Source: a virus
Strand: one strand, 5' to 3'
DNA length: 64,000 nucleotides
Virus record (IMG/VR): IMGVR_UViG_3300020281_000010
Shown here one piece after another: positions 12,519-34,357 of the stretch. The position numbers were made by a program, and so were the translations under genes. The first letter of the stretch is position 1. The number at the start of each line of letters is the position of its first letter. The notes beneath the pieces were generated by a model. It was given only the letters and a program-made list of their open reading frames with translations, was not told where the DNA came from and did no database searches.

Positions 12519-12758
12519 ATGATCCATCCACAAGCAGTTTTGTATAGCAATGGTTCACAAGAGAGCGAGAGAGCAGAACAGTTCCTCAAATCTCAAAATT
12601 TCGAGTTTACAACATATAAATTAGATCATCACTTTACACAGAGAGCATTTGAGCAAGAATTTGGAGAGGATGCTACATATCCACAGATTTCTATCGGATC
12701 CAAGCATATTGGTAGTCTGAAAGAGACGCTTCAAGACCTCTATCTCCAACGTGTATAA
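12519..12758 (+). CDS. Glutaredoxin-fold protein lacking CxxC
   Basis: VLYS...TYPQISIGSKHIG Grx motif; SQES occupies the usual CxxC position. Confidence 0.7.
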   Translation: MIHPQAVLYSNGSQESERAEQFLKSQNFEFTTYKLDHHFTQRAFEQEFGEDATYPQISIGSKHIGSLKETLQDLYLQRV

Positions 12759-19660: not shown

Positions 19661-19663
19661 ATA
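19658..19663 (+). promoter_or_regulatory. T4-type late promoter
   Basis: TAAATA overlapping the upstream stop codon. Confidence 0.65.
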
Positions 19664-19684
19664 GAACAGGAACGGTAGGATCCT

Positions 19685-20551
19685 ATGTCAACAAAGATTA
19701 ATGGTAATCAGATTCAAGCAACGACCAGAGGTTTGGTCGAAGCGTGGTCTATTTCCGAGCAGTTAAATCTCCCCTCTCTAAACCAATCACAGGTCAATGC
19801 TCTAGGTACACCCGCGTTTGGTACTTTGGTGTATAATAACACCGAGGATATGGCACAGATCTACAAACAAGATGCCAACCAAGGTAACCCTGGCTGGACT
19901 GATGTTGGTGGAGGTGGTCCTGCTATTGGTGAAGGTTCTATCATTAGAACGAACGGTACAAATATTCAAGAGAACTTAACTGTCGGTCCTACTGCAAACG
20001 GTGGTGTAGAGTTCACAAACGGATTCTCAGCGGGTCCGATCCAAATTGACTCAGGTTATACTGTTACCATTGAGAACGGTGCATCTTGGACATTGCTCGG
20101 TGACGATGACCTGTCATACGCTGAATTCGTTGATATTGAATCACAGCACGCTACATTCACTGGTACACTTCATTACGGTGAAACAAAAGAGAGCGTTTAC
20201 TATTACACAACAAGTGGTTCTCTAACTCACGATTACAATAATTCAAACTCTATCTGGATCAACAAAACTGGTGGTGGTAACTTTACTATCAGTTTCACTA
20301 ACGTTCCTACTGATGGTGCACACGCATATGGTATGACTGTTGCTATCAGAAACCAAGGTGGTGAGGGTATTCCTACCTCAGTTAATATTAACGGACAGTC
20401 AACAACAATCTACTGGTCAGGTGGTAACGAACCGTCTTGGGGTGATGATGACAACTATGTGGTTGTATCATTCGCATTGGTTTACACACCAAACACTAAT
20501 CAGCATTCATTCACTGTATTTGGTTCTGCTACTGGATATTATCCTGCATAA
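19685..20551 (+). CDS. Virion/tail-fibre-associated protein
   Basis: GTLVYNNT..AQIY..W and IRTNG..I.ENLT..NGFSAGPI.I..G.TVTI..GASW motifs common in cyanophage fibre proteins. Confidence 0.65.
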   Translation: MSTKINGNQIQATTRGLVEAWSISEQLNLPSLNQSQVNALGTPAFGTLVYNNTEDMAQIYKQDANQGNPGWTDVGGGGPAIGEGSIIRTNGTNIQENLTVGPTANGGVEFTNGFSAGPIQIDSGYTVTIENGASWTLLGDDDLSYAEFVDIESQHATFTGTLHYGETKESVYYYTTSGSLTHDYNNSNSIWINKTGGGNFTISFTNVPTDGAHAYGMTVAIRNQGGEGIPTSVNINGQSTTIYWSGGNEPSWGDDDNYVVVSFALVYTPNTNQHSFTVFGSATGYYPA

Positions 20552-20553
20552 TT

Positions 20554-21537
20554 ATGTCAACTAACATTGGTTATTCTGGGATGTTCAATCCCTTCTCATC
20601 CACACTATGTTCTCGTGGTGGTGGAGCAGGAGGTGGTGGTGCTATTAGAATCATTGCTGACGATAACGGAACTGTATTCGATCAAGCATATAACGGACTG
20701 AACTTTAGATTCCACAGATTTACAAGCACAGGAGATAATAGTCTATACATTCGTGGTGGTGCAGGTGCAACACTATACGTTTGGATGTGGGGTGCTGCAG
20801 GTGGCCGCGGCGGTCAAGGTGGTGCCAACGGTGGTGCAGGTGGTATGTCATATGGTGAGATTACAGTCCAAGATTCTTGGGTAAATGCAGGTGGAAGAAT
20901 GAGAATCTACGTCGGTGGCGGCGGTGGAGGAGGAAACGGTTGCTACGGATGTTGGGGTGGCGGTGGAAATGGATCCAATAATTCAGGTTATGGTTCAGGG
21001 GGACGTGGTACACACGCTTCTTGTAGAGGATGTTCAGCAGGTGGTGGTGGAGGAGGAGCAGCAACTATGCTCTTCTCACCTTTGGGTGTCAATATGAACG
21101 AAGGAAATATTCTCCAAGTCGCAGGTGGCGGCGGTGGAGGTGGAGGTCGTGAAGGTTGTGGTGGTGCAGGTAATGGTGGAGCAGGTGGACAAAGAGGAGC
21201 AAACGGACAGTGTGGTTCACAGGGTGGAGCAGCAGGTGGTAACAGTGACACCAACGGTGATGAGTGTGGCAGACCAGGGAACGACGCTTCTGGTGGAGGC
21301 GGCGGTGGCGGCGGTTACAACGCAGGTAACTGTGGTGGAAACCCAGGTTGTGACTGTAACGGTGCCGCAGGTGGTGGTGGAGGTAATTCTTGGATTTCTT
21401 CTCCATACCATATCGGTGGTTATATAAGTAATGGTGACTGGAATACCCCAGGTGATAACTCTTCTCAATTTAGACAGGGTTATGCACAACCTAACGGTGG
21501 ATCAGGCATCGCCACACTTGGTTATCTTGTAAGTTAA
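20554..21537 (+). CDS. Glycine-rich fibre tip/adhesin-like protein (Cys-rich loops)
   Basis: WGAAGG, YVGGGG, VAGGGGGGG and GGGGNSW glycine-rich-domain motifs; many Cys in the loops. Confidence 0.65.
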   Translation: MSTNIGYSGMFNPFSSTLCSRGGGAGGGGAIRIIADDNGTVFDQAYNGLNFRFHRFTSTGDNSLYIRGGAGATLYVWMWGAAGGRGGQGGANGGAGGMSYGEITVQDSWVNAGGRMRIYVGGGGGGGNGCYGCWGGGGNGSNNSGYGSGGRGTHASCRGCSAGGGGGGAATMLFSPLGVNMNEGNILQVAGGGGGGGGREGCGGAGNGGAGGQRGANGQCGSQGGAAGGNSDTNGDECGRPGNDASGGGGGGGGYNAGNCGGNPGCDCNGAAGGGGGNSWISSPYHIGGYISNGDWNTPGDNSSQFRQGYAQPNGGSGIATLGYLVS

Positions 21538-21539
21538 TT

Positions 21540-22073
21540 ATGGCAACAATTTACGACCCAAAAACAGCAGACGATCAATACGAAACGTATAATACTGCTG
21601 CTGTAGTCTTCGATTTGGGAGAAGACACAAGTATTGGTAGTGGATTCTCTACGATTAAATCTAGAGATGTCACTATTAAAATGAGCGTAAGGAAATTTGG
21701 AGAGTATAAACTTAGATGGGAGGATGGTTTAAGAGTTGGTATCTCAGTCTCTGAACCTTCTGGATACCAAATCTTTACGACACAACTTGATAACATTATA
21801 TCAAGTGACGATAAGTATCAGTTAACGGTATCGTTACCTGTGCTAAATACAGAGGTTAAGTACGCTGTTCAAATGTGGGCAGGGGACAACACCAAATCAA
21901 TGATCCACAGAGAGACGATTGAAGTTCCTGATTATCAGGATCCGTCTACGCAGAGAGAGAATCCTGCGAACACAGTTGTGTATCACGAAGGATACTATCC
22001 TGATGATGAGCAATGGGAACGAGACCAACCTTATCTCCCTTCTGGTTTCGAACGCCCTGTGCCACCTACATAA
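21540..22073 (+). CDS. Hypothetical (fibre-associated) protein
   Basis: ORF track; lies between two Gly-rich genes. Confidence 0.6.
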   Translation: MATIYDPKTADDQYETYNTAAVVFDLGEDTSIGSGFSTIKSRDVTIKMSVRKFGEYKLRWEDGLRVGISVSEPSGYQIFTTQLDNIISSDDKYQLTVSLPVLNTEVKYAVQMWAGDNTKSMIHRETIEVPDYQDPSTQRENPANTVVYHEGYYPDDEQWERDQPYLPSGFERPVPPT

Positions 22074-22077
22074 TGTA

Positions 22078-22083
22078 TAAATA
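22078..22083 (+). promoter_or_regulatory. T4-type late promoter heading the fibre-halogenase-oxygenase run
   Basis: Intergenic TATAAATA 28 nt upstream of ATG 22111. Confidence 0.7.
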
Positions 22084-22110
22084 ACTCAGAGGAAATTTTA
22101 ACAGGCTAAA

Positions 22111-22911
22111 ATGAGTACACTCAAAGTTGCATCTATTAGAGACCTGTCTGGCATTGGCGGATTTACCCTCGCATCTGGTAATATTACTGCTAATGGTACG
22201 CTGACTGTTAGTAACTTGACCGTTAACGGTACGATGTCAGGTTCATCTAGTCAGATTGTGCCTAGTGTCTCAGGTCAGAGTGGTAAGTTTCTTACCACGA
22301 ACGGTTCGTCAATGTCTTGGACAGACGTAAGTTCAGAAAACATTTCATCCCTACAGGTTTGGACAGGTAATGGTACTTGGAACAGACCAAGTGGTGTTAA
22401 ATATATCCACGTTCGCTGTCAAGGTGGCGGTGGAGGAGGTGCGGGTCACGGTGAATCAGGCGGTGCAGGAGGTTACTCCGAACGTGTGATGTCTGTGGCA
22501 AACATTTCATCCGTTGGTATCACTATTGGTGGTGGCGGTGGAGGTACTTGGTACTTCAACCGTGGTGGTGACGGAGGATCATCTTCATTCGGTCCTTATA
22601 TGTCAGCAGGTGGAGGACACGGTGCTGCAAGAAATAACGCACACTCAGGTGGTCTCGGCAGAAATGGTTCTGGTGGAGACTTGAACATCTGGGGTGGTGG
22701 TGGACAGTCCCACGCTGCTCACGGTGGTGGAACTGGTGGACCTTCTCACTTCGGTGGATCTGTTGCTGCAGGTTGGCCAAATGGAGGAAACTTCAGTCAT
22801 AATCACCAAGATCACTCAGCGTATGGTTCAGGTGGTTCAGGTGGTCACTTCCACTCTTTCCGTGGTTCAAACGGTAAGTATGGTGTTGTTACTGTTATCA
22901 ACTACAAATAA
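22111..22911 (+). CDS. Glycine-rich fibre tip/adhesin-like protein (His-rich loops)
   Basis: GTWNRPSGV..I.VRCQGGGGGG...GGAGGY..GG.GG.SSFG glycine-rich-domain pattern; GQSGKFLTTNG linker. Confidence 0.7.
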   Translation: MSTLKVASIRDLSGIGGFTLASGNITANGTLTVSNLTVNGTMSGSSSQIVPSVSGQSGKFLTTNGSSMSWTDVSSENISSLQVWTGNGTWNRPSGVKYIHVRCQGGGGGGAGHGESGGAGGYSERVMSVANISSVGITIGGGGGGTWYFNRGGDGGSSSFGPYMSAGGGHGAARNNAHSGGLGRNGSGGDLNIWGGGGQSHAAHGGGTGGPSHFGGSVAAGWPNGGNFSHNHQDHSAYGSGGSGGHFHSFRGSNGKYGVVTVINYK

Positions 22912-22920
22912 GGGGTTACG

Positions 22921-23439
22921 ATGAAAAAAGCATTGATGGATTTCACAGGGTATGTCGCTGACATCGTAGAACCAGGGGAGGAATACGCACTATTCCTTGG
23001 TCGTGGTTGTTCTCAGATGTGGGTGAATGCACCTGATGATATTACTAAAACTTGGACTCTTGAGTGGTCACCTTCAGCAGAGGATATGATCTGGGTCAAG
23101 AGAACTGAAACATATGCAGATCCTGCTACTACACGTAGAGTTGCATATGGTGAAATCGGGGCACAGTTGGATATGCTCTACAAAGACCTCGCAGCAGGAA
23201 GATCGTTGACAGCAGACGATGCTCTTTGGTATAATCACGTCAAGACAGTTAAAGAAAACACAACTTCACCTTCATCAGTTGAGGAACCAATGGATCCCAC
23301 GATGACAGAGGAAGAAATTGCAGAATTTATGTCTGACAATGTAGAACCTGCTACTAGCAGACCCTGCAAAATCTCAACACAAGAAAATCCTTGTTGGGAA
23401 AGATACTCTAACTGGGGAAGAACCTACGAAGAACTCTAA
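22921..23439 (+). CDS. Putative tail-fibre assembly chaperone-like protein
   Basis: RRVAYGEIGAQLDMLYKD..W...VKTVK motif seen downstream of phage fibre genes; 7 Trp in 172 aa. Confidence 0.5.
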   Translation: MKKALMDFTGYVADIVEPGEEYALFLGRGCSQMWVNAPDDITKTWTLEWSPSAEDMIWVKRTETYADPATTRRVAYGEIGAQLDMLYKDLAAGRSLTADDALWYNHVKTVKENTTSPSSVEEPMDPTMTEEEIAEFMSDNVEPATSRPCKISTQENPCWERYSNWGRTYEEL

Positions 23440-23445
23440 TTTGGT

Positions 23446-24918
23446 ATGCAACTACATAAAATCTGTATTGTCGGTGGTGGCAGTGCAGGGTGGATGACCG
23501 CTAGTGTTCTAGCGAAACATTTTGGAAATACAAAAGAAATTGTGTTGATCGAATCTCCAACTACACCTCGAATTGGTGTGGGAGAAGCGACAACACAATT
23601 TTTTAATACATTTGTACGGTATCTTGGTCTTAAAGATGAAGACTGGATGCCGAAGTGTGATGCAACGTACAAGCATAGTGTAAGGTTCGAGAACTTCAAT
23701 CCGAACGGTGTCTTTCATTATCCATTCGGGAAAACAGAAGGACCTGCATCTATTGCTGACTACTACACTTGGAGAAAGTTTGGAAAAATTGACAGTATGA
23801 CGTTCGGTCTGATATATTCAGACACAGTACGCGGTGCTGAAAATGGCAAACTTATCCCAAATCTCACTCATTTTAACGTTGGTTATCATTTCGACGCTAT
23901 TGCCTTTGCAGAATATCTAAAACACAACTATGCAATTCCTAAAGGTGTTAAACTTATTGAAGATACAGTCAGCGAGATTGAATCCTGCGTGGATGGGATT
24001 AGCAGAGTTCGCGTTCATAGTGGCGATTGGCACGATGCAGACCTTTTTATAGACTGCACAGGATTTGCTGCGATCCTTAGTAATGAAGTAGGATCCGAGT
24101 GGGAAGCGTGGAACGATGAATTGTGTTGTGACTCAGCGTGGACAACGAGAGTACCATATAAAGATAAAGAAAAAGAATTAGTTGCATACACAAACTGCAC
24201 AGGAATGAGCAGTGGATGGGTATGGAGAGCACCCACGTGGTCACGAATTGGAACGGGTTATGTATTCTCTTCCCGTCATCAATCCAAAGAGGATGCACTA
24301 ACAGAATTCAAACAGCATTTAGGTGTAGGTGATGAACAGGAATTCAGATTCCTTGAGTTCCCTACAGGTGTAAGGAAGGAGATATGGAAGAAGAATGTGG
24401 TATCTATTGGATTGGCAGGTGGTTTCATTGAACCACTAGAATCAGGTGGACTATATTCAGTACACGAGTTCTTATTTAATCTGATACAGGTTCTTCCTAA
24501 AGAGAGGGACAACTATAATGGTTTTATCAGAGAACAATTCAACTGGGGATCCAAGCGAAGACTGAAATCATTCAAGGATTTCGTGTTAGCACACTATTGT
24601 CTAAGTCCTAGGGATGACACACCATTCTGGAAACACTATAATCAAATGAACTTTCAATCAGAGTTCCCTGATGTGTTGACACAGAGATTTGAACAAATCG
24701 GAAATCTAAACTACCTATCTGAGGGTGCATTATACTTGCTAGGTGGGTATGAATATGATATAATTCCTGATAGGTTTGATGTCATCGCTGCACACGATGG
24801 TTACGAATCACCCGACTTTGACGATATGTTTATGGATCACCTTACTAAACGAGATCCAGACTATCCAACACCGTTCGAGTATTACAAATCTACCCTATAT
24901 AAGAAAGAAGATTCTTAA
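23446..24918 (+). CDS. Flavin-dependent (tryptophan-type) halogenase 1
   Basis: GGGSAG FAD motif, GVGEAT, ATYK (catalytic Lys position), YHFDA, FIDCTGF, GWVWRAP, GFIEPLES. Confidence 0.93.
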   Translation: MQLHKICIVGGGSAGWMTASVLAKHFGNTKEIVLIESPTTPRIGVGEATTQFFNTFVRYLGLKDEDWMPKCDATYKHSVRFENFNPNGVFHYPFGKTEGPASIADYYTWRKFGKIDSMTFGLIYSDTVRGAENGKLIPNLTHFNVGYHFDAIAFAEYLKHNYAIPKGVKLIEDTVSEIESCVDGISRVRVHSGDWHDADLFIDCTGFAAILSNEVGSEWEAWNDELCCDSAWTTRVPYKDKEKELVAYTNCTGMSSGWVWRAPTWSRIGTGYVFSSRHQSKEDALTEFKQHLGVGDEQEFRFLEFPTGVRKEIWKKNVVSIGLAGGFIEPLESGGLYSVHEFLFNLIQVLPKERDNYNGFIREQFNWGSKRRLKSFKDFVLAHYCLSPRDDTPFWKHYNQMNFQSEFPDVLTQRFEQIGNLNYLSEGALYLLGGYEYDIIPDRFDVIAAHDGYESPDFDDMFMDHLTKRDPDYPTPFEYYKSTLYKKEDS

Positions 24919-24920
24919 TT

Positions 24921-26573
24921 ATGCAAGTTAACAATGTAGTAATTGTAGGTGGTGGGTCATCTGGATGGATGACAGCATCTGCACTATTGAAACTATGCCC
25001 TTGGATTAGTGTTGTACTGGTGGAATCCAAGAAACACAAACCAGTCGGAGTTGGTGAATCAACTCTAGGACACTTCAATAAGTATTTGCGTGCACTCGGT
25101 CTTAAAGATGAAGAGTGGATGCCGAAGGTAGGAGCAACATATAAAAATAGTATCCAGTTCACAGACTTCCGTGAGAAAGGATCTACATTCCAGTATCCAT
25201 TTGGACCGCCAGATCTATATAATTGTAAGAACGATATTCAAGATTGGTTTGATCTTCAAAGATTATATCCTGATGAGTTCCCGCCAGAGTTGTTTGCTAA
25301 GTATTACTTGGCAGGTAACACCTGTATGGCAGAACATAACAAAATATATGGTAACAAAGATGGGAGGATTCGTGATTTTGACTTTGCTAGTGATACTGCC
25401 TACCATATTGATGCTGACCGATTCGCGGAATACTTGAAGACTGAGGTGTGTTATCCGTTCGCTGAACAGGATAGATTCACACACATCACAGGTGATGTAC
25501 GAGGGATGGTCAAGGATGTTATGGCAGGTGGATCTCCCGCCCAAAGTAACAGAATCATCAAACAACTTGCAGTAAAATTAGCAGCAGACAAAAAGACAGT
25601 TGGAGTTCAAGGCGATCTCTTCATTGACTGCACAGGATTCAAGGGTGCACTCATTGAGGAAATGATGGCAGTGCGACATATTAGTTTCGAGAAATATCTA
25701 CCAAACGATAAAGCATTCTTTGCTCGCATTCCTTACACATCACAGAAACAACGTAAGGAAAAGATGCACAACGTGACAGACTGTCGTGGTGCAAACAATG
25801 GATGGATGTGGACAATTCCACTGTGGGATAGGATCGGAGTTGGATACTGTTGGTCGTCACGTTTCGCTATGGAAAATGAGGCAAAACAGGAATTCGAAAT
25901 GTGGATTGATGAAGAGTTCGATCTTGAACCCGATGAGTATGAAATCAAATCCATTGACATCAAGCACGGATATAGAGAGAAAGCGTGGGAGTTGAATTGT
26001 GTAGCAATCGGGATGTCATATGGTTTCATTGAACCACTAGAGTCCACTGGTCTGTTGACAACTCACGAGAATATCCTTAGACTGGTTGATGTTCTTAATC
26101 GCCGCGAAGGTTATGTGTCAGGTATTGAGCGACAATGGTTCAATTATGCTGCACAACGTGAGGTGATTGGGTTCAGTCATTTCGTAGCAATGCACTATGC
26201 ATTGAGCAAACGAACTGACAATCCATATTGGAGACACGCATCACAAAGATGTGAGTATATGCTTGAACAGTTTGATGGTAACATCAAGGTGAACGATGAG
26301 TACGAGAGGATGGGAGATATTCTTGATCTTGGTAGACCACTCAGAGCAAACATTGCAGGTATGAACTTCATCGCTGCAGGTATGGGACTGAAACTGGGAA
26401 CTAGGTTCAATGGATATGGAAACGTTGAAGAACTCACTCATATCGGAAACGAGCGTCTCGACTATATCAAAGGTGTAGAAGAATTCATCAAGTCAGATGA
26501 AGTTCTTACTCATTATGAATTTCTAAAGCAAAAGATCTATGGTGAAGACAATGTTCAACTTCCTGAGGAATAA
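24921..26573 (+). CDS. Flavin-dependent (tryptophan-type) halogenase 2
   Basis: GGGSSG, GVGEST, ATYK, YHIDA, FIDCTGF, GWMWTIPL, GFIEPLESTG. Confidence 0.93.
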   Translation: MQVNNVVIVGGGSSGWMTASALLKLCPWISVVLVESKKHKPVGVGESTLGHFNKYLRALGLKDEEWMPKVGATYKNSIQFTDFREKGSTFQYPFGPPDLYNCKNDIQDWFDLQRLYPDEFPPELFAKYYLAGNTCMAEHNKIYGNKDGRIRDFDFASDTAYHIDADRFAEYLKTEVCYPFAEQDRFTHITGDVRGMVKDVMAGGSPAQSNRIIKQLAVKLAADKKTVGVQGDLFIDCTGFKGALIEEMMAVRHISFEKYLPNDKAFFARIPYTSQKQRKEKMHNVTDCRGANNGWMWTIPLWDRIGVGYCWSSRFAMENEAKQEFEMWIDEEFDLEPDEYEIKSIDIKHGYREKAWELNCVAIGMSYGFIEPLESTGLLTTHENILRLVDVLNRREGYVSGIERQWFNYAAQREVIGFSHFVAMHYALSKRTDNPYWRHASQRCEYMLEQFDGNIKVNDEYERMGDILDLGRPLRANIAGMNFIAAGMGLKLGTRFNGYGNVEELTHIGNERLDYIKGVEEFIKSDEVLTHYEFLKQKIYGEDNVQLPEE

Positions 26574-27336
26574 GAAGAAGAAACCGTGGTTGCGGTTCTT
26601 CTCTCTAGAACCAGGGTTGGTCGAGAACTATCCTTTGATACCAACGAGTTCGGTAAGAAGACGTTGGCAATCGAAAGAAGAACGACAAAAGAAATGCCCT
26701 TTCCGTGGATCTATGAATGTGGCAAATTGCCCAGGGTTGAAACAGATCACACGGATGGGTTATGTTGTAGTCGCACCAATGGATTTCATCATTCGTACAA
26801 ACGGTGATGGAGTTGGTTATGAGTATGAAATCCCTACAATGTTCACGAGACACGCGAACTTTATTGGGGATCACCCGCCAGACCAAACTGTACCCTTGGT
26901 GGACAGTCCACGTGAATCACTTGCACACATCATCAAACTCGAAACACCGTGGAGAGTGAGAGCAAGTGACGATATTATCTTTATGCAGACACCCGTGTAC
27001 TGGAACAATGAGTCCCGTTTCGAGGCAACTGCAGGGATCTACGATCCAAGATTTGCTATGCAAGTTAATGTGCAACTTATCTGGCACGTACTAGATGGTG
27101 AAACGCTGATCAAGGCAGGGACACCACTAGCACAGTTCATACCTATGCCTAGAGCAACACTTGACAAAGGTTGGTATGATATTCGTATAGATAATGCAAC
27201 GACTGAAGATTGGGATCTAGAAAATGCTTTCAATTATTCTTTGAAGGCAGAGTATCCCAACGATGATGATGTATCACACAAAGTCGCTAGAGCAATGAAA
27301 GCGATTAAACACCACAGCAACGGAATTGACCGATGA
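26551..27336 (+). CDS. dUTPase-fold-like hypothetical protein, paralog A
   Basis: CPGL...GYVVVAPMDF...IKLETPW...IKAGTPLAQFIP; start probably ATG 26551. Confidence 0.55.
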   Translation: MFNFLRNKKKKPWLRFFSLEPGLVENYPLIPTSSVRRRWQSKEERQKKCPFRGSMNVANCPGLKQITRMGYVVVAPMDFIIRTNGDGVGYEYEIPTMFTRHANFIGDHPPDQTVPLVDSPRESLAHIIKLETPWRVRASDDIIFMQTPVYWNNESRFEATAGIYDPRFAMQVNVQLIWHVLDGETLIKAGTPLAQFIPMPRATLDKGWYDIRIDNATTEDWDLENAFNYSLKAEYPNDDDVSHKVARAMKAIKHHSNGIDR

Positions 27337-27653
27337 ACATTAATGAATTGATTCAAAACTTTCACCTGCAGAAGGAGGAAGTTGACAAGATCATTGAAAA
27401 ATACGATACGGATTTCTCAAACAAGAAACTAAATCCGTATGGTGTCACCACTATTGAGTTTCAAAAGAGATCTGATGCATATGCTCAGAAATCTAGATTG
27501 GAGGGTGCTATCGATGCTCTCTTTATTGTGAAACGAGATATTATGGGTGAGGATGATGAGGTCGGGATGCCAATGGCAGAACTCGATGCTGAGGATACTG
27601 AAATGGAAATTATCGGAAACGTATCAGAGGAAAACCAAACAGAGGAGGATTAA
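27333..27653 (+). CDS. Hypothetical acidic coiled-coil protein
   Basis: ORF track; ATGA coupling. Confidence 0.6.
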   Translation: MNINELIQNFHLQKEEVDKIIEKYDTDFSNKKLNPYGVTTIEFQKRSDAYAQKSRLEGAIDALFIVKRDIMGEDDEVGMPMAELDAEDTEMEIIGNVSEENQTEED

Positions 27654-27823
27654 TGTCAACTTCATACCACGTTTACTACAACGGTAAAGTTTTGTTCAAG
27701 AACTTGAACGAAGAAGAATTTGATGTAGTCTGGGGTAGGATTTATCATTCATATCATACTGATAGTATCTCCTATGAGAAATGTGGCGAAGAAAATCTGG
27801 AAGGATGTGAGCAGTCTTACTAA
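27653..27823 (+). CDS. Hypothetical protein (56 aa)
   Basis: Hand translation MSTSYHVYYNGKVLFKNLNEEEFDVVWGRIY...; TAATG overlaps on both sides. Confidence 0.65.
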   Translation: MSTSYHVYYNGKVLFKNLNEEEFDVVWGRIYHSYHTDSISYEKCGEENLEGCEQSY

Positions 27824-28356
27824 TGCGTGTTATTCGTAATGTGATCCCAACTGTATATCAGATGAGGATCAAACAAATGATGGAAGATGTAGGATTCCCT
27901 TGGGGTTATCTTAAGGATGTCACATACAGAGATACTGACGAGGTGCGAAACCGATTCCCTAACGCAAATGGGAGTCAGGGGTTCGCACATTTGTTTTATG
28001 ATGCTGAAACAAATACTCACTCAGAGTTTTGTAATATCATAATGCCACTTCTCTTCTCATTTGTAGATACAACAGAGTATGATCTGTTTAGGATTAAAGG
28101 TGGTCTCCTATTGCCAACAGGCACAGGATATAATATGCCACACATTGATATGAACAGACCACACACAACTGCACTATATTATGTGAACACGAGTGATGGT
28201 GAAACCGTGTTCTTTGATGAAAACAGCAACGAGATCAGGAGAGAGAAACCAGAGCAAGGTAAAGTCGTTATTTTTGATGGTTCTATTTACCACGCATCGA
28301 GTTGCCCCACCACCACTACAAATAGAATGACATTAAATTTTAATTATGACTATTGA
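27823..28356 (+). CDS. 2OG-Fe(II) oxygenase
   Basis: MPHID...LYYVNTSDGET...IFDGSIYHASSCP...R motif. Confidence 0.85.
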   Translation: MRVIRNVIPTVYQMRIKQMMEDVGFPWGYLKDVTYRDTDEVRNRFPNANGSQGFAHLFYDAETNTHSEFCNIIMPLLFSFVDTTEYDLFRIKGGLLLPTGTGYNMPHIDMNRPHTTALYYVNTSDGETVFFDENSNEIRREKPEQGKVVIFDGSIYHASSCPTTTTNRMTLNFNYDY

Positions 28357-29059
28357 GATCTTTTACTATCAGTATGACGGTGGTCAGGACATTCTAAACT
28401 GTTGGGATTCACCTCTAAGTTTAGATGGTATTGGTATTGAACCAAAGAAAGTTATAGATGAGTACGAAGGAAACAAATTCGTACCATATATGCAATGCCC
28501 TGCTTGGACACACAAGAACTCACGTGAGTTTATTATGTACAGTCCGAAGGATATGACATTCACAATCTATGAGGGTGGAGTCAAGTGTAAAGAATTCAAT
28601 GATCAGCAGATTCAGAAATATCTCAAGGTAGAAGATCTGGAACCACCAATCAAAACTCTACAGATTTCGGTTCCACAGTTGTTGGTATGGACAAAGGCAA
28701 AGGGAGTATGGGTGGAAGCGAGAGACTATCCATTGACAAGTAGAAACAATAACTATACAATAGTAAACGGTTGGTTTAACCTATCTGATTGGTGCAGACC
28801 TATATCTTTTGGGATCAATGTTTGTGACCCCAATGAACAGGTCAAAATAAAACGAGGTGACCCAATTTATAAGTTTGCTTTCTACAAGGAAGGTGACCTT
28901 AGAGAGTCATTCAAGTTGACCAAGGCGGCACCGCCACAGGAAATGTTATTGAAGATGCATAAGCGTCTTTCAGTAAAACAATTCACACCATTTCTTGCCA
29001 AGGATATTATCTTTGGAGAAAAAGAAAAGAAATGCCCTTTCAGATGGTTTAGAAAATGA
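28346..29059 (+). CDS. dUTPase-fold-like hypothetical protein, paralog B
   Basis: QCPAW...FIMYSPKDMTF...IKRGDPIYKF...KKCPF; shares motifs with 26551-27336. Confidence 0.5.
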   Translation: MTIEIFYYQYDGGQDILNCWDSPLSLDGIGIEPKKVIDEYEGNKFVPYMQCPAWTHKNSREFIMYSPKDMTFTIYEGGVKCKEFNDQQIQKYLKVEDLEPPIKTLQISVPQLLVWTKAKGVWVEARDYPLTSRNNNYTIVNGWFNLSDWCRPISFGINVCDPNEQVKIKRGDPIYKFAFYKEGDLRESFKLTKAAPPQEMLLKMHKRLSVKQFTPFLAKDIIFGEKEKKCPFRWFRK

Positions 29060-29715
29060 AATTCGTTGAGGAGTATGTACCAACCATAGTCATCGATAAT
29101 TTTTTCGAGACACCCTCTTTGGTTATTAATCTAGCGAAACAGCAGAAGTATTGGAGATGCTTCGATCATCCCAATAAGGGGAATTGGCCTGGGAAAAGGT
29201 CAGAACTTCTTGATTCAGTTGACCCTGTACTTCACGAAATCATATGTCGTAAAGTAACATCGTATCTCCCTGCATTTGTAGGATTTGATATTGCAGATAT
29301 TGCATTTCACGTATGCGATGGTAAGAACAAACGTGGATGGATTCATTCTGACCCACCACACTTAGGTGTAGGTATGGTTATCTATTTGAATGATGGTGTT
29401 GTACCTAATCGTGGTACAACTATCTACGATGTGCCACCAAATTTTAGTGGGCAAGGTTTCGAAGATGAATTCAAGAAACAGTTACTTGCTCAGGATGATG
29501 AGGAATCGGCAGCAGCATATGAAAAGTATAAAGAAGAGTGTAATTCGATGTATCAAACGTCAATTAGTATTGAAAGTAGATACAATCGTTGCTTAATCTT
29601 TGATGGTAGGAAGTTTCACGGTGGTATGGATTTCTATGGAAATGATGTCAACGATGCTCGCCTAACTATTGTGGGTTTCTTCCACGGAATTACTCACGAC
29701 CTTGTAAACATTTAA
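29056..29715 (+). CDS. 2OG-Fe(II) oxygenase-like protein
   Basis: IVIDNFF...WPGKRS...IHSD...IYLN...GT...YNRCLIFDGRKFHG. Confidence 0.8.
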   Translation: MKFVEEYVPTIVIDNFFETPSLVINLAKQQKYWRCFDHPNKGNWPGKRSELLDSVDPVLHEIICRKVTSYLPAFVGFDIADIAFHVCDGKNKRGWIHSDPPHLGVGMVIYLNDGVVPNRGTTIYDVPPNFSGQGFEDEFKKQLLAQDDEESAAAYEKYKEECNSMYQTSISIESRYNRCLIFDGRKFHGGMDFYGNDVNDARLTIVGFFHGITHDLVNI

Positions 29716-29721
29716 CATAAA

Positions 29722-30375
29722 ATGGAAGTGGTTATTGAAGAGAAAATCGAAGAGTTCGCTAAGGGTAAACTTTGGCGAATTCGTAATGCATTATCACAGG
29801 AAACTTGTGAACATTTGAAGCACGAATTCATTATGATTAAAAACATAATTGAAGCGACAACTTCAGGTCCCACAAGCGATCCCATAATGCCAGGTGCCTT
29901 TGCAATGTACTCTCCAGTATGTTTTGAAGCAATGGGACAAGTAATTAAAAAACAGATTGAAGACACCGTTGGTTGTAAATTATGGCAGACATTTAGTTAT
30001 GCCAGAGTATATACTAAAGGCACTAATCTGGTTAGACACAGAGACAGAACAAGTGGTGAATGGGTTGGAAATATATGTGTAACAAGAGACGAAACTAATT
30101 GGCCATTTTATATCGAAATTGATGGTAAATCGTATGACTTGTTAATGAATCAAGGTGATATGATTATCTTCCGTGGACATAAAGATTTCCATTGGAGACC
30201 AAAGTATCAAGGAGAACTACAGATTCAAGCATTTGTATCTTACGTTGACCAAGATGGTAGATACGCTGACAATAAATGGGACGGTCGTCCGATGTTAGCA
30301 GCACCTTGGGAAACAGCGAGTCAAAGGATTCAGAATGAACAATCAATGATCAACACTTCACCCTACTACACATAA
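29722..30375 (+). CDS. 2OG-Fe(II) oxygenase-like protein
   Basis: TFSYARVY..G..LVRHRDR...GDMIIFRG..DFHWR...QAF. Confidence 0.8.
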   Translation: MEVVIEEKIEEFAKGKLWRIRNALSQETCEHLKHEFIMIKNIIEATTSGPTSDPIMPGAFAMYSPVCFEAMGQVIKKQIEDTVGCKLWQTFSYARVYTKGTNLVRHRDRTSGEWVGNICVTRDETNWPFYIEIDGKSYDLLMNQGDMIIFRGHKDFHWRPKYQGELQIQAFVSYVDQDGRYADNKWDGRPMLAAPWETASQRIQNEQSMINTSPYYT

Positions 30376-31019
30376 TGCATTCCCCTAAAGAATTATCTGA
30401 CGATTTTGAGAGTATCCAACAAACCAACGTGTATGGTTTGTTTATGAACCCCGTGGGAAACTACACAAATGAGAACCACGAACGGGACAAGAACGCGATT
30501 ACTAACTTCATCAATCAATGCACGAACGATGATCTACATCAATCTCCTAACACCTCTATATGCCACGGTGTGACGCAAATAGGAGAGAATAATGTGTTGG
30601 ATCATCCTTTGCTTGCAACGGTAAAGGAGACGATTCTGGACGCTGTTAGGCAAGTGAATGAAGGTTCAATGCAATATGATCTCTCAACTATGGAGTTGAT
30701 TGATTCACACATTGAAGTAGCATCACAGAACTCAATCTATGCACCACACGAGTTCTCTAATTGTTTGTACTCAGGTTGTTATTTCATTAACTACGACCCG
30801 ATGAAGCACGCACCACTCAGGTTCAAGAGAACTACACAGTCTACATTCTATCCAATTATGCAATGTAAACAGACTGGGATGACACCATTTAATTTGTTGG
30901 ACGCTACCGTACCAACAGCAGAGGGAGATATTGTTATCTTCCCAAGCAATATGACTCACGGATACGAGACAAATGGTGAACACAATCGTATCACCCTGAC
31001 ATTCAACGTGGCACCATAA
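30375..31019 (+). CDS. 2OG-Fe(II) oxygenase-like protein with degenerate triad
   Basis: HEFSNCLYSGCYF...EGDIVIFPSNMTHG...RITLTFN; the HxD/E/H position reads HEF. Confidence 0.7.
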   Translation: MHSPKELSDDFESIQQTNVYGLFMNPVGNYTNENHERDKNAITNFINQCTNDDLHQSPNTSICHGVTQIGENNVLDHPLLATVKETILDAVRQVNEGSMQYDLSTMELIDSHIEVASQNSIYAPHEFSNCLYSGCYFINYDPMKHAPLRFKRTTQSTFYPIMQCKQTGMTPFNLLDATVPTAEGDIVIFPSNMTHGYETNGEHNRITLTFNVAP

Positions 31020-31708
31020 TGAAACTAACAGTCAGCAATCCATTTGATACAGCATATAAGAAACTGGATGATGTGATCGTCTTCGATGATATTATCCCAC
31101 CAGTATATCAGGACTGGTTACTATTATGTGCGAACAATCCAGATCTTGCTTGGTATCGTAAGGACAAGGCAATCACGGACATTCCTGATTTTATTGATGA
31201 CCCCCGCAATGGGTTCGCTAACCTACATTATTTGTATGAAATTGAGTATGGTGACAAATCACATTGCTCAACACTCACAAATGGTTTTATGCCACTCGCT
31301 TTACAGTTCCGTGAAGCATTGAGTGCCGAATGCCTGCTACGAATGAGAATAAATGCAGTACCTGCTATGGGTTCTAATCAGGTACAAATGCCACACATTG
31401 ATAGTTACGTCCCTAATTCTTGGAACGTGATCTACTATCTGAATGACACGGATGGAGATACAATCATCTATAATGAGAGAACTCAGGATGCCTTTGAGTA
31501 CCCTGCAATGGTATCTAAGGATACTTGGACAGAAAAGCAACGTGTAACCCCTAAGAAGGGCAGAGCGGTTGCTTTCAAGGGAGATCTGTTTCACAGTTCA
31601 TCCTATCCAACAAAGGAACCACGTTTAGTGGTAAATATAAATGTGAGTGAGAAAACACCCACCGACCCCCGAACTTCTTACAATCCTAACTATGGCAACA
31701 TTACTTGA
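31019..31708 (+). CDS. 2OG-Fe(II) oxygenase
   Basis: MPHID...IYYLNDTDGDT...PKKGRAVAFKGDLFHSSSYP...R. Confidence 0.85.
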   Translation: MKLTVSNPFDTAYKKLDDVIVFDDIIPPVYQDWLLLCANNPDLAWYRKDKAITDIPDFIDDPRNGFANLHYLYEIEYGDKSHCSTLTNGFMPLALQFREALSAECLLRMRINAVPAMGSNQVQMPHIDSYVPNSWNVIYYLNDTDGDTIIYNERTQDAFEYPAMVSKDTWTEKQRVTPKKGRAVAFKGDLFHSSSYPTKEPRLVVNINVSEKTPTDPRTSYNPNYGNIT

Positions 31709-32366
31709 AAAGGGTGATGACTGGTCTCTATGGAGATCACCTTGCATCATCCACGAGAAGGATGAAATGATCACTCAACTTGGTAGGGCATATCGTCTAT
31801 TCAAGAATACATTTACTGGTTTCGATTCATCCCTGACTGATCAGGGTTTGACACTAGGCAATCTTCCTAGTCTATTCAATTATGAAGAGAAACGCAAGGA
31901 AGATGAGGAATTTATTAAGAATTGGGGTAAAGAACAGTATAGTGGGTATCGATTCTATAACATATTTGCACTTACATCCCCAAGTCCGCTATTCTGGTTA
32001 TTGAACAGAGATCTTCAAACTGTGGTACGCACCACGCTTGAAACTGACGAACCACTATGGTTTCAATGTTGGATGAACTATCACAATCCTAACAATGTCT
32101 TAAACTGGCACGACCACAAATTTGATTATCACGGTTATATTAGTATTGAACCGCACAATACTACAACCGAGTTCAGACAGGATGGCGAACCACTCTATTC
32201 TATCAAGAATGAAGTGGGCAATATCTACTTTGGGCCTGGGTGGGACAGGCAACACAGGGTGGTGGTTCACGAGGAATTTGAAACACCTCGTATTACACTT
32301 GGGTTTGATATTCACACCCAGTCCGATCTCCCTGACGATCAATTCTCACTCATCCCATTATTGTAA
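31692..32366 (+). CDS. 2OG-Fe(II) oxygenase-like protein
   Basis: Probable start at ATG 31692; FQCWMN...WHDH...HGYISI...HRV...RITLGFD. Confidence 0.7.
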   Translation: MATLLEKGDDWSLWRSPCIIHEKDEMITQLGRAYRLFKNTFTGFDSSLTDQGLTLGNLPSLFNYEEKRKEDEEFIKNWGKEQYSGYRFYNIFALTSPSPLFWLLNRDLQTVVRTTLETDEPLWFQCWMNYHNPNNVLNWHDHKFDYHGYISIEPHNTTTEFRQDGEPLYSIKNEVGNIYFGPGWDRQHRVVVHEEFETPRITLGFDIHTQSDLPDDQFSLIPLL

Positions 32367-32411
32367 ATAGTATTATCTTCGCTTGGGGGAGCGATGTTCC
32401 TAAAATCCAGA

Positions 32412-32582
32412 ATGCTTACTGACAAACAACAATCTGTTTTACGCAAAGCACTATTGTTGTATATTTCGTCTTCATATAGAAGACATCACCGAGGGCAAAT
32501 TAGCAAACAAGTTCTTGCTGATACACTTGCTGAAGTAGACGAACTTTCCGATCTACTACATTTGAAACACGTTTCAGAATGA
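32412..32582 (+). CDS. Small hypothetical protein
   Basis: MLTDKQQSVLRKALLLY...; TAAATA at 32364-32369 upstream. Confidence 0.55.
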   Translation: MLTDKQQSVLRKALLLYISSSYRRHHRGQISKQVLADTLAEVDELSDLLHLKHVSE

Positions 32583-32908
32583 CAACACCTCTCTTTTTAT
32601 CGGAGTCTATACCCTTGGAAATAAGGAACATACTAAAATCACTTGAGGTAGGAATGCCTGCAAGATTTGAACAGTTCGAAGGCACGATTGAATTTGTGTC
32701 TGAAGAATACATTACACTATGTGTTGGTACTAAACCTAATCCAGAGGGTTCTAGACAACCGATGAATAAGTGTTGTCTTTGTGTGTATCCACATCAATGG
32801 GATGATCTTGAAATAGATGATTCACACTTCAAAAATGTAAAGAATTATCAGGGAAAAACCAATGACCACCCAGGAAATGAGATGTTACCAGACGTGGAGG
32901 ATCGATGA
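32579..32908 (+). CDS. Hypothetical protein
   Basis: ORF track; ATGA coupling. Confidence 0.6.
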   Translation: MTTPLFLSESIPLEIRNILKSLEVGMPARFEQFEGTIEFVSEEYITLCVGTKPNPEGSRQPMNKCCLCVYPHQWDDLEIDDSHFKNVKNYQGKTNDHPGNEMLPDVEDR

Positions 32909-33158
32909 AGCAGTATAGTTTAGAATTATATGCTGAGATCGTCAAATATTATGAACAGCAATCAAATCTATCGTCAAAGGTACGAAAGTCTGTTAAGATG
33001 GACAAGAACACACATCAATCAAATGCAAACAACGTCACTCACACCTAAAGAACTATTGGGTTGTATGTCAGCGATGCAAATGCTTGACAACAAATCACAA
33101 CAGAACTGGGAATCACTTCTTGGTATCTCATTTAATGATCTTTATCACAAACTAGAAA

Positions 33159-33368
33159 ATGCCCTTGAGGAAACTGGTGAAGGTCACACCTAAATCTGAC
33201 CGAACAAAAAAACAATTTGTTGAACATATGAACAGCAATCCTATCTGTAATATTGAGGATAAGAGAGCGGACGGACGTATGTTTATGTCGTCACAACATA
33301 ATCCAGACTTTTGGATTTGGTCGGACGGTGACGATGACCCCCACTGGTCATACGAAAGGTTGGCATAA
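33159..33368 (+). CDS. Hypothetical protein
   Basis: ORF track. Confidence 0.55.
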   Translation: MPLRKLVKVTPKSDRTKKQFVEHMNSNPICNIEDKRADGRMFMSSQHNPDFWIWSDGDDDPHWSYERLA

Positions 33369-33369
33369 T

Positions 33370-33594
33370 ATGATTTCACAAAAAATGTCAGAACCAGAAT
33401 TCTTCAAACAAACGTCCGACTTGCCATATGACCGTCATTGGTATAAAATATGGTGCAAAGACAACTCAGTTAAAATAGTGGAGTCTTACGAGGAAGTACA
33501 AACCGCGTGGTGGAACTTCCATCAACACATATCACACATTGAGGTCATCGATGCAAAACGAAAGAAAGGAGGGAAAAGCAGGGGATTCGCTTAA
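33370..33594 (+). CDS. Hypothetical protein
   Basis: Probable start at ATG 33370, directly after the upstream stop, within track ORF 33253-33594. Confidence 0.55.
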   Translation: MISQKMSEPEFFKQTSDLPYDRHWYKIWCKDNSVKIVESYEEVQTAWWNFHQHISHIEVIDAKRKKGGKSRGFA

Positions 33595-33778
33595 AATAGA
33601 AGTGAATGAGGATGGTCAGGTGACTCTCGACTGGGACAGCAATGACCCACAATGGAACTTTTTATCAAAACTATCACAAACTGAGGTACAGGAATTTGTC
33701 AACAACGCAATCAACTACGGACTTGGAACTTCTGATCAGTCTAGCGAGACTGTTGAACCAGAAAGTGACGCACCTTGA
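33551..33778 (+). CDS. Hypothetical protein
   Basis: LKIEVNEDGQVTLDWDSNDPQW; start uncertain. Confidence 0.5.
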   Translation: MQNERKEGKAGDSLKIEVNEDGQVTLDWDSNDPQWNFLSKLSQTEVQEFVNNAINYGLGTSDQSSETVEPESDAP

Positions 33779-34007
33779 TTACACATCTTATTTGCAATCA
33801 CACTTGAACACCGTTATTTGTGAACTTGAACGACAACAAACCCTGCGAGAATCCGCTGACTTGCGATTCATTCAAGAGAACAATGGTGGACATATTAGGA
33901 AAGATCTCGATTCCCTCGGAGAGCGAATGTTCCCACTCGGATACGAAACAACAACAGACAACTATGAACACTCATCCTACTATTGGGACACCGATCGAAA
34001 CAAGTGA
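33765..34007 (+). CDS. Hypothetical protein
   Basis: Probable GTG start at 33765 within track ORF 33642-34007. Confidence 0.5.
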   Translation: MTHLDYTSYLQSHLNTVICELERQQTLRESADLRFIQENNGGHIRKDLDSLGERMFPLGYETTTDNYEHSSYYWDTDRNK

Positions 34008-34149
34008 AGATCTGTAAACTTGTGTTATGTTTCATTTAATTTTTACATAACTACGTTATGATTTACAAACACTTCTAAATAATCATAGAATCAAGGAGAG
34101 CGATGCAACCTTAATCTTCTACATTATGATTTAGTTACAGGTAAGGACA

Positions 34150-34308
34150 ATGCACAATCTTATAGCAAAGGAGCAGTTAGCAGAATGGTCTGAATCTCAC
34201 TCTAACGAGGAAATGGACTTAATCAATGACTATTTCGACTGTTTAATTGAATGCTCTATCGAACAACACCCACACGAGTGCAAACGAATATGTAAAGACA
34301 TATGGTAG
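34150..34308 (+). CDS. Small twin-Cx3C protein (52 aa)
   Basis: Hand translation ...DYFDCLIECSIEQHPHECKRICKDIW; TAAGGA RBS; TAAATA at 34076-34081. Confidence 0.7.
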   Translation: MHNLIAKEQLAEWSESHSNEEMDLINDYFDCLIECSIEQHPHECKRICKDIW

Positions 34309-34327
34309 AGTGACAGTTCAAGAAGTG

Positions 34328-34357
34328 ACCACCCGACACCCCCTCGGGTGGTTTTTT
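34328..34357 (+). terminator. Rho-independent terminator
   Basis: ACCACCCGA-caccccc-TCGGGTGGT followed by a T run. Confidence 0.85.

Follow-up and report, generated by a model that had tools for sequence, protein, structure and literature searches.

Halogenase and dioxygenase genes behind the tail-fibre tip genes of T4-like cyanophages: a candidate cassette for late-protein tailoring

Flavin-dependent halogenases and multiple 2-oxoglutarate (2OG)-Fe(II) oxygenases are common in marine cyanomyoviruses. What such enzymes act on is the question raised by a locus within a 64,000-nucleotide stretch (64 kb; the window) of the IMG/VR virus record IMGVR_UViG_3300020281_000010, in which a single run of genes behind the tail-fibre module encodes two halogenases, six oxygenases and two proteins of the dUTPase fold. 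The source of the window is an uncultured T4-like cyanomyovirus (Kyanoviridae); a megablast search of the region against phage records gave no match, and the best protein-level halogenase matches, from Synechococcus and Prochlorococcus phages, show at most 44% identity. The locus is a member of the dioxygenase-halogenase neighbourhood of phage Syn9, and constitutes a cassette of accessory enzymes that has been added behind the genes of the tail-fibre tip in a T4-like cyanophage. Tailoring of virion proteins or late proteins by this cassette is plausible, with a probability that we put at roughly 0.4.

The run comprises fourteen plus-strand open reading frames (ORFs) from 22111 to 32366 which, as described in the initial annotation, are joined by overlaps or by gaps of at most 9 nt (junctions of 9, 6, 2, -35, -4, -1, -1, -11, -4, 6, -1, -1 and -62 nt, the last one being -17 nt if the final gene, g31647, starts at the ATG at 31692, which is probably its true start). 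Judging from this arrangement, the overlapping genes are probably translationally coupled. The only sizeable gap, 37 nt following position 22073, contains a complete T4-type late promoter octamer, TATAAATA, at 22076, within which lies the TAAATA at 22078 that had been taken as the beginning of the run. The window contains two perfect octamers; the other one, at 12754, is located 36 nt ahead of the gene 12790–14115 and probably acts as late promoter for that part of the fibre or baseplate module which lies further upstream. Neither a strong terminator nor a second perfect late promoter was found inside the run, in agreement with the earlier reading. A seven-of-eight match, TATAAATG, located at 31624–31650 within the 3'-terminal part of g31019 and shortly before the start region of g31647, may be a weak internal late promoter or due to chance. 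The end of the unit, initially placed at 32366, had to be revised: transcription would continue through six small ORFs, the order of which is kept in the closest relatives (L004–L012) and one of which (33253) belongs to DUF7441 (E 6e-24), to an intrinsic terminator at 34327–34353. This is the sole strong terminator between 15 and 36 kb, and a UvsW-like helicase gene begins immediately after it. The unit spans the interval from the late promoter at 22076 to the terminator at 34353, about 2 kb beyond 32366.

A first set of 12 loci (nine IMG/VR loci and three annotated phages) was compared with the window. In these, the order tip gene (one to three copies), gp40, optional hal1, hal2, g26539 is invariant, and the downstream oxygenase set varies; hal1 is absent from L008–L011, and g28346 is present only in near relatives. 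The closest relatives, L004–L012, have the same gene set as the window, and the same order also occurs in Syn9, P-TIM40, S-RIM44, S-WAM1, and S-CREM1. At least 581 viral contigs match the halogenase profile, of which 80 further viral loci, with 34–68% identity to hal2, were scored with family hidden Markov models (HMMs). Of 59 testable loci, 41 have a gp40-like gene immediately upstream of the first halogenase gene, and 44 have a Gly-rich gene in the 3 kb preceding it. The gene of dUTPase-fold protein A immediately follows the halogenase gene in 36 of 47 fibre-type loci, and at least one oxygenase gene is found within 9 kb downstream in 38 of 56 loci. The gp44-like gene comes after the dUTPase-fold gene in Syn9, S-CREM1 and most loci of this first architecture (type A). 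The postulated synteny of fibre, halogenase and oxygenase genes is conserved in at least five Kyanoviridae genera and in most of the 80 loci, albeit not universally, as the phages S-B64 and S-RIM2 show. The recurrent core consists of tip gene, gp40, halogenase, dUTPase-fold protein and gp44. Two contigs filed under bacterial metagenome-assembled genomes (MAGs) resemble the window in gene order: L020 (CAYVOK010000041.1; Acidimicrobiaceae MAG) contains the cassette in full, with genes of tip protein, gp40, halogenase, dUTPase-fold protein and oxygenases, L021 (NZVD01000053.1; Rhodopirellula MAG) its oxygenase part. Both are almost certainly mis-binned phage fragments.

A second architecture (type B) was observed in L086, L089, L090, L096, L100, L101 and L105, and partly in L053/L054. 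Type-B cassettes contain three to four halogenase genes, three to four tandem dUTPase-fold A genes and about eight oxygenase genes, and the family HMMs detected neither a Gly-rich gene nor a gp40 gene in these loci. The cassette is convergent to three tandem genes coding for paralogs of about 320 amino acids (aa) with 40–43% mutual identity (e.g., L096:14645-17538, minus strand), one of which matches the Pfam C1q domain (E 5.9e-6). As these genes are preceded by homologues of the genes located just upstream of the Gly-rich genes in the first architecture, the fibre module is common to both types, with the tip type swapped and the cassette inverted yet still adjacent.

The position of the late promoter octamer ahead of the tip gene is conserved in 9 of the 12 loci of the first set (L002, L004–L010, L012), and L011 has one octamer 31 nt ahead of its halogenase gene. 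In 11 of the 48 loci of type A, an additional copy separates the last tip gene from the halogenase gene. Octamers of their own are also borne by the inverted cassettes in L090 and L096, and L053/L054 have one 48 nt ahead of the dUTPase-fold B gene; across the 80 loci, 89 octamers were counted in 1178 kb, both strands included. The terminator hairpin is kept via compensatory changes in the stem in L004, L006, L007, L008 and L012, and the clusters of P-TIM40 and S-RIM44 likewise end in a terminator directly after the last gene. Consistent with the late-operon architecture proposed initially, the positions of these elements suggest late-promoter control in both architectures.

It might be argued that the stretch separating the fibre module from the UvsW helicase gene is a permissive site that has gathered independently acting genes without a common pathway, with oxygenases that, for example, draw down 2OG or repair DNA, and halogenases in some unrelated role. 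Such an origin could account for S-RIM2, where the tip gene and the gp40-like gene are followed by small ORFs, genes of one 2OG oxygenase and a methyltransferase, and the helicase gene, a halogenase gene being absent; the oxygenase content moreover differs between close relatives (among these, g30375 was found in L007 only, and g28346 is confined to near relatives). Elsewhere in the literature, halogenases and oxygenases have been considered singly, with speculative roles in antibiotic protection, 2OG modulation and DNA repair. However, the order halogenase, dUTPase-fold protein A, gp44 recurs where the halogenases are only 34–68% identical to hal2, the same oxygenase families (gp47, gp51/53, gp52, gp54) recur with halogenases in both architectures, the genes overlap and are probably translationally coupled, and none of the four hot spots given by Sullivan et al. 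corresponds to this region. We therefore regard a chance collection of cargo genes as quite improbable.

Table 1. Features of the cassette and its surroundings (window coordinates)
Feature	Position	Strand	Characteristics
Upstream fibre module	16085..22073	+	From ORF map and composition: 1191-aa fibre-like protein (16085-19660), g19685, g20554, g21540
T4-type late promoter octamer TATAAATA	22076..22083	+	28 nt ahead of g22111 start
Gly-rich fibre-tip protein g22111	22111..22911	+	Syn9 gp38/gp39 family
gp40-family protein g22921	22921..23439	+	Conserved N-domain of ~115 aa plus variable acidic tail; phrog_1787
Flavin-dependent halogenase 1 (hal1), predicted	23446..24918	+	Syn9 gp41-like; PF04820 E 1e-103
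Flavin-dependent halogenase 2 (hal2), predicted	24921..26573	+	VirX1 (Syn10) / Syn9 gp42 orthologue; PF04820 E 9e-87
dUTPase-fold protein A, g26539	26539..27336	+	Syn9 gp43 family; invariant Cys64; without dUTPase motif V
gp44-like small protein	27333..27653	+	Helical N-terminus, acidic tail
56-aa Tyr/His-rich ORF	27653..27823	+	Only in closest relatives
2OG-Fe(II) oxygenase g27823	27823..28356	+	PF13640 type, Pfam 1.2e-6; Syn9 gp51-like
dUTPase-fold protein B, g28346	28346..29059	+	Remote paralog of g26539; large unnamed family
DUF6445 2OG oxygenase g29056	29056..29715	+	PF20043 4e-13; Syn9 gp52 family
2OG-type oxygenase g29722	29722..30375	+	Syn9 gp54 family; phrog_2954 1e-41
2OG-FeII_Oxy_5 / TIGR02466-like oxygenase g30375	30375..31019	+	PF13759 1.7e-7
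2OG-Fe(II) oxygenase g31019	31019..31708	+	PF13640 type, Pfam 1e-6; Syn9 gp53-like; invariant triad
Cupin/2OG-like protein g31647	31647..32366	+	Syn9 gp47 family; phrog_2696 3e-45, phrog_81 2e-5
Six small ORFs finishing the unit	32394..34308	+	Starts 32394, 32579, 32930, 33253, 33642, 34150
Intrinsic terminator	34327..34353	+	8-bp GC-rich stem plus T6

Both halogenase genes recognized initially code for proteins with intact catalytic motifs, so that hal1 and hal2 are predicted to be functional halogenases. The hal2 protein matches VirX1 (PDB 6QGM) over its full length (residues 2–542; E 4e-149), and hal1 matches the same structure with an E value of 4e-91. The FAD-binding GxGxxG motif is found at residue 10 (GGGSAG in hal1, GGGSSG in hal2), and the catalytic Lys (ATYK; K79 in VirX1/PrnA numbering) and the Glu of GFIEPLES are invariant when aligned with Syn9 gp41/gp42 and other orthologues. 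The WxWxIP motif reads WMWTIP in hal2 and has the conservative variant WVWRAP in hal1; variants also occur in Syn9 gp41 (WVWNVP) and in gp46 of P-TIM40. A PF01613 flavin reductase gene is missing from the complete 187-kb genome of a close relative, which agrees with the earlier proposal that the host has to supply the reduced flavin. That cyanophage halogenases largely lack known substrates, as had been noted, holds also for VirX1, which serves as a biocatalyst; this enzyme is a trimer with a large, accessible and unusually open active site (PMC8407142).

Four of the six oxygenases recognized in the initial annotation pass the Pfam cut-offs (PF13640 twice, PF13759, and DUF6445); g29722 and g31647 are backed by invariant His/Asp motifs, PHROG matches and orthology to Syn9 gp54 and gp47, respectively. 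The PF13640 type is the prolyl-4-hydroxylase type. The iron triad HxD/E...H plus a distal Arg/Lys is invariant in the families of g27823 (H107-x-D109, H157, R168), g29056 (H97-x-D99, H188, R202) and g31019. Invariant residues of g29722 are H106-x-D108 and H157, and those of g31647, H155-D-H157 and H203, are cupin- or Oxy_5-like; the first motif of g30375, for which two sequences only could be compared, is non-canonical (PHEFSN, with no acidic residue at +2). The six proteins are mutually distant, the sole detectably related pair being the paralogs g27823 and g31019 (BLASTP, 3.5e-17; hhalign, 99.9%). When profiles of four of the oxygenase families were compared with PDB sequences, no match was significant, and JmjC domains were not detected by Pfam among the window proteins. 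Syn9 gp54 has been counted among the 2OG-Fe(II) dioxygenases (2OGFeDOs) by Iyer et al. 2010 (PMC2938197).

The PHROG labels attached to g27823, g29056 and g29722, i.e., "DNA endonuclease V" (phrog_274), "minor coat protein" (phrog_1644) and "ferrochelatase" (phrog_2954), belong to proteins with the 2OG triad; RefSeq uses them for Syn9 and S-WAM1 as well. The labels are probably mis-annotations that have been passed on. A match to the NCBIfam "FlmC family 2OG oxygenase" (E 2e-11) was set aside, as its 44 bits compare with a cut-off of 240 bits. In the only paper found, FlmC of Caulobacter was characterized as cytidylyltransferase-like.

The assignment of g26539 and g28346 to the dUTPase fold likewise held. 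Pfam gave no dUTPase match for either protein, and none of the 70 homologues of g26539 carries a Pfam domain; g28346, the family of which has 714 representatives at E ≤0.001 (50% clustering), has neither a Pfam domain nor a Syn9 orthologue. An AlphaFold2 model of g26539, calculated from a 43-sequence alignment, reached a mean pLDDT of 90.6. Foldseek placed dUTPases at the top (E 1.6e-4), as did VIA, which is independent of Foldseek (Z 9.4, rmsd 2.8 Å over 119 residues), dCTP deaminases being next. The model of g28346 (pLDDT 92.9) gave a best VIA Z score of 10.3, and its top 22 matches were all dUTPases or dCTP deaminases, the next match falling below Z 5. Shallow alignments of the two families revealed no significant relation, whereas hhalign with a 56-sequence alignment gave a probability of 94% (E 1.3e-7, 129 columns); this match, together with the two folds, identifies g26539 and g28346 as dUTPase-fold paralogs. 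With respect to the five textbook motifs of dUTPases, g26539 has apparent equivalents of motifs I–IV, including Asp82, Arg139, Asp169, and Gln199. Inspection showed that both proteins have helical C-termini and no Gly-rich motif V, that family B is without the Asp of motif III, and that a Cys-Pro motif is invariant in both. By these motifs, neither protein looks like a working dUTPase.

As the dUTPase/dCTP-deaminase fold is a nucleotide-binding one and motifs I–IV are apparently kept in g26539, the two proteins might bind pyrimidine nucleotides and the halogenases and oxygenases might modify bases, e.g., by C5 halogenation or hydroxylation; some 2OG oxygenases do modify nucleic acids (PMC2938197). 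Such a function in nucleotide or DNA modification appears very improbable in view of the missing motif V and, in family B, of the missing motif III Asp. Moreover, a late promoter beside fibre genes is unsuited to the modification of precursor pools, a kinase, transferase or polymerase partner is lacking, and none of the oxygenases matched the AlkB, TET or JBP families in Pfam or NCBIfam.

The genes preceding the halogenases belong to the fibre module. The initial description of g22111 as Gly-rich and adhesin-like is supported by its composition (25.9% Gly, with a His/aromatic-rich C-terminus), by a PF21722 (Gly_rich_2) match that passes the Pfam cut-off (4e-6), and by PHROG tail-fibre families, i.e., phrog_863 (4e-56) and phrog_21412, the latter corresponding to the C-terminal tip of a tail-fibre profile of 1452 positions. 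No significant match was found among PDB sequences. Tip genes of this type occur in one to four tandem copies in relatives. All 12 of the phage records with strong homologues (E ≤1e-10) are those of halogenase-cluster phages, a figure confounded by relatedness and by the low-complexity filter. The adjacent g22921, described initially as Trp-rich, is modestly so (4.1% Trp; W34 and W159 are invariant). It falls into the Atlas cluster "Gp40 family", the nearest named clusters of which are tail-assembly chaperone types with lead-level scores only, and it is possibly a fibre-assembly chaperone. The profile gave no significant match to PDB sequences, and the authors of the S-CREM1 genome paper, using HHpred, tied the orthologue to an SPbeta "stress response protein". 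For the gp44-like protein, a Pfam scan detected no family. The upstream fibre module shows the same gene order in L004–L012, and the equivalent Syn9 gene is annotated as tail fiber. Upstream of the late promoter at 22076, g20554 (20554–21537; 33.6% Gly, rich in Cys, with extended poly-Gly stretches) adds another Gly-rich protein of unusual composition to this module.

Inside g22921, 210 nt ahead of hal1, an element at 23206–23235 matches the sigma-70 consensus perfectly (TTGACA, 18 nt with an extended -10 TG, TATAAT). It is kept in L004, L005, L007 and L012, but was lost in L006 and L008–L010, and was therefore rejected as a conserved internal early promoter. Contigs of four RNA libraries cover parts of the region, and those of one marine metatranscriptome span it completely, with near-identical sequence; these contigs show presence but carry no information on timing or strand, stretches without coverage are not informative, and DNA carry-over is possible. 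One contig of run X4 (33817–34310), which spans the 3'-terminal part of g33642 together with the 52-aa ORF 34150–34308, rich in Cys and His, had a depth of 74, as compared with 3–6 for the other X4 contigs, and enters adapter sequence at 34310, 17 nt short of the terminator hairpin. It may stem from a 3' fragment that is both stable and abundant, or from a small RNA located where the operon ends.

Taken together, the data can be accommodated by the following scheme. Late in infection, the two flavin-dependent halogenases would use flavin reduced by the host and halide from seawater (Br-, I- or Cl-), with six Fe/2OG oxygenases of about five families working beside them. Jointly, these enzymes would halogenate and hydroxylate, in several steps, an aromatic or peptidyl compound produced by the phage itself at this stage. 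A protein of the adjacent fibre-tip module would be the leading candidate for this substrate, namely the gp38-like tip protein, rich in Gly, His and aromatic residues, or the protein of the gp40 family, and the Cys-bearing dUTPase-fold proteins might act as non-hydrolytic partners of the halogenases that bind or present the substrate. A substrate from the fibre-tip module is favoured by the late promoters seen in both architectures, the close linkage to gp40 and tip genes in many phages, the fact that the cassette stays beside the fibre module even when inverted, the occurrence of oxygenases of the PF13640 type, the unusually open active site of VirX1, and the fact that neither scaffold-forming nor export genes, transporters included, are found among the scanned ORFs of the unit. 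In PMC2938197, bacterial collagen-like and tail-collar proteins are argued to be substrates of co-encoded hydroxylases. The specific version of this scheme, in which halogenases and oxygenases post-translationally modify tip proteins or gp40, with trimers of the Cys-bearing dUTPase-fold proteins as docking partners, is less likely than not.

Several observations weigh against tailoring of late proteins. Adjacency to the fibre genes can be inherited from the T4-like order of structural modules without any functional coupling, and in S-RIM2 tip and gp40-like genes do without a halogenase. The halogenase gene of S-B64, whose product is 42% identical to hal1, sits behind SbcCD among the replication genes, and none of the partner genes accompany it. 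Genes of dUTPase-fold protein B and gp54-like oxygenases occur in psbA/tRNA or sugar-metabolism regions of S-H38, S-CAM3 and S-T4. The tip of type-B loci is of a different, C1q-like type, hence a substrate requirement specific to Gly-rich proteins cannot be general. VirX1 halogenates many free small aromatics in vitro (PMC8407142). For the Syn9 cluster, Iyer, Abhiman, de Souza and Aravind (PMC2938197) proposed the synthesis of halogenated and hydroxylated secondary metabolites derived from amino acids, and they also mention gp52-like oxygenases together with halogenase, SapC and TonB genes in proteobacteria, which have no fibres.

According to that proposal, free Trp or Tyr, or a small peptide or metabolite made by the host, would be successively halogenated and hydroxylated to give a bioactive product that is freed at lysis or used in the infected cell, the fibre module being a mere insertion site. 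Many distant dioxygenase families combined with halogenases are indeed typical of tailoring steps in biosynthetic clusters, a role already put forward for this neighbourhood (PMC2938197); halogenase, dUTPase-fold protein A and the same oxygenase families travel together regardless of orientation or tip type, and the activity of VirX1 towards small aromatics, the isolated halogenase of S-B64, and the occurrence of oxygenase and dUTPase-fold B families in auxiliary metabolic gene (AMG) regions would all be in line with it. On the other hand, Pfam, PHROGs and NCBIfam revealed no genes of nonribosomal peptide synthetases (NRPS), polyketide synthases (PKS), ATP-grasp enzymes, ribosomally synthesized and post-translationally modified peptide (RiPP) precursors, export or resistance among the scanned ORFs of the unit, which thus is without a scaffold-forming enzyme or a conserved precursor peptide, albeit a scaffold made by the host is possible. 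Late-promoter control leaves a lytic phage little time to profit from a metabolite, and the strong positional tie to gp40 and tip genes would have no explanation. The bacterial neighbourhoods were not recovered either: six genome matches, two of which are mis-binned phage contigs, did not show the co-occurrence of gp52-like oxygenase, halogenase, SapC and TonB genes, a sample too small to contradict the published account; Methylophilaceae loci have no halogenase gene within 8 kb, and the DUF6445 gene of Methylopumilus sits among housekeeping genes. We regard a secondary-metabolite pathway as about as likely as the tailoring of late proteins, each at less than even odds.

Tailoring of tip proteins or gp40, if it takes place, would reveal what VirX1 acts on in nature, let the halide of seawater help to determine adsorption or host range of the phage, and yield, to our knowledge, the first halogenated virus particle. 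The locus provides concrete candidate substrates and partners, and thereby sharpens into a testable hypothesis what viral halogenases such as VirX1 might act on.

Among known systems, the cluster of S-SSM6a and P-SSM2 (Iyer et al. 2021, PMC7824862) likewise combines a cyanophage halogenase, in this case an amino-acid halogenase, with 2OGFeDO and cupin hydroxylases, and is predicted to make or decorate a halogenated product. It differs in comprising carbamoyltransferases, a HemK-like methylase and HAD phosphatases, none of which are encoded in the present cassette; its halogenase is only about 30% identical, and the cluster has not been described as fibre-linked.

Homotrimeric dUTPases and dCTP deaminases share the fold of g26539 and g28346 (Z 9.4 and 10.3; rmsd about 3 Å over about 120 residues), whereas the absence of motif V, extra N- and C-terminal elements and the invariant Cys-Pro motif set the phage proteins apart from homotrimeric dUTPases. 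Moreover, both families occur only alongside halogenases or oxygenases and not as general genes of nucleotide metabolism. The gp43 orthologue of S-CREM1 was annotated as dUTPase-like in the genome paper; the second family, that of g28346, which is large, unnamed and related to gp43, is newly defined here. VirX1 of Syn10 (PDB 6QGM; Gkotsi et al. 2019) shares with hal2 the same motifs and the same syntenic slot, i.e., that of the second halogenase followed by a gp43-like gene, at about 47% identity of hal2 to Syn9 gp42.

The closest parallel is the cluster of Syn9 itself, which according to PMC2938197 comprises a tandem series of dioxygenases from several families along with two Trp halogenases and a dUTPase-fold protein that has a conserved Cys. 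By tblastn, most genes of the cassette are one-to-one orthologues of gp38–gp54, with protein identities of 34–61%: g22111 corresponds to gp38/39, g22921 to gp40, hal1 to gp41, hal2 to gp42, g26539 to gp43 (46% identity), and g27333 to gp44, and among the oxygenases g31647 corresponds to gp47, g27823 to gp51, g29056 to gp52, g31019 to gp53, and g29722 to gp54. Given this orthology, the cluster is a further case of the neighbourhood already described, with shared gene order. It differs from the Syn9 cluster in encoding six dioxygenases instead of ten, and in the second dUTPase-fold paralog, g28346, which has no Syn9 counterpart. Syn9 gp49, a JmjC protein of the MINA/No66 type (L003 15633-16343), matched no window protein by tblastn; as L004–L012 share the gene set of the window, and S-CREM1 has a JmjC-annotated ORF, this member is variable rather than essential. 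To the account in PMC2938197, the accessible text of which does not discuss a fibre link, late promoter or terminator, the present analysis adds the promoter and terminator boundaries of the unit, the survey of 80 loci, and the inverted second architecture.

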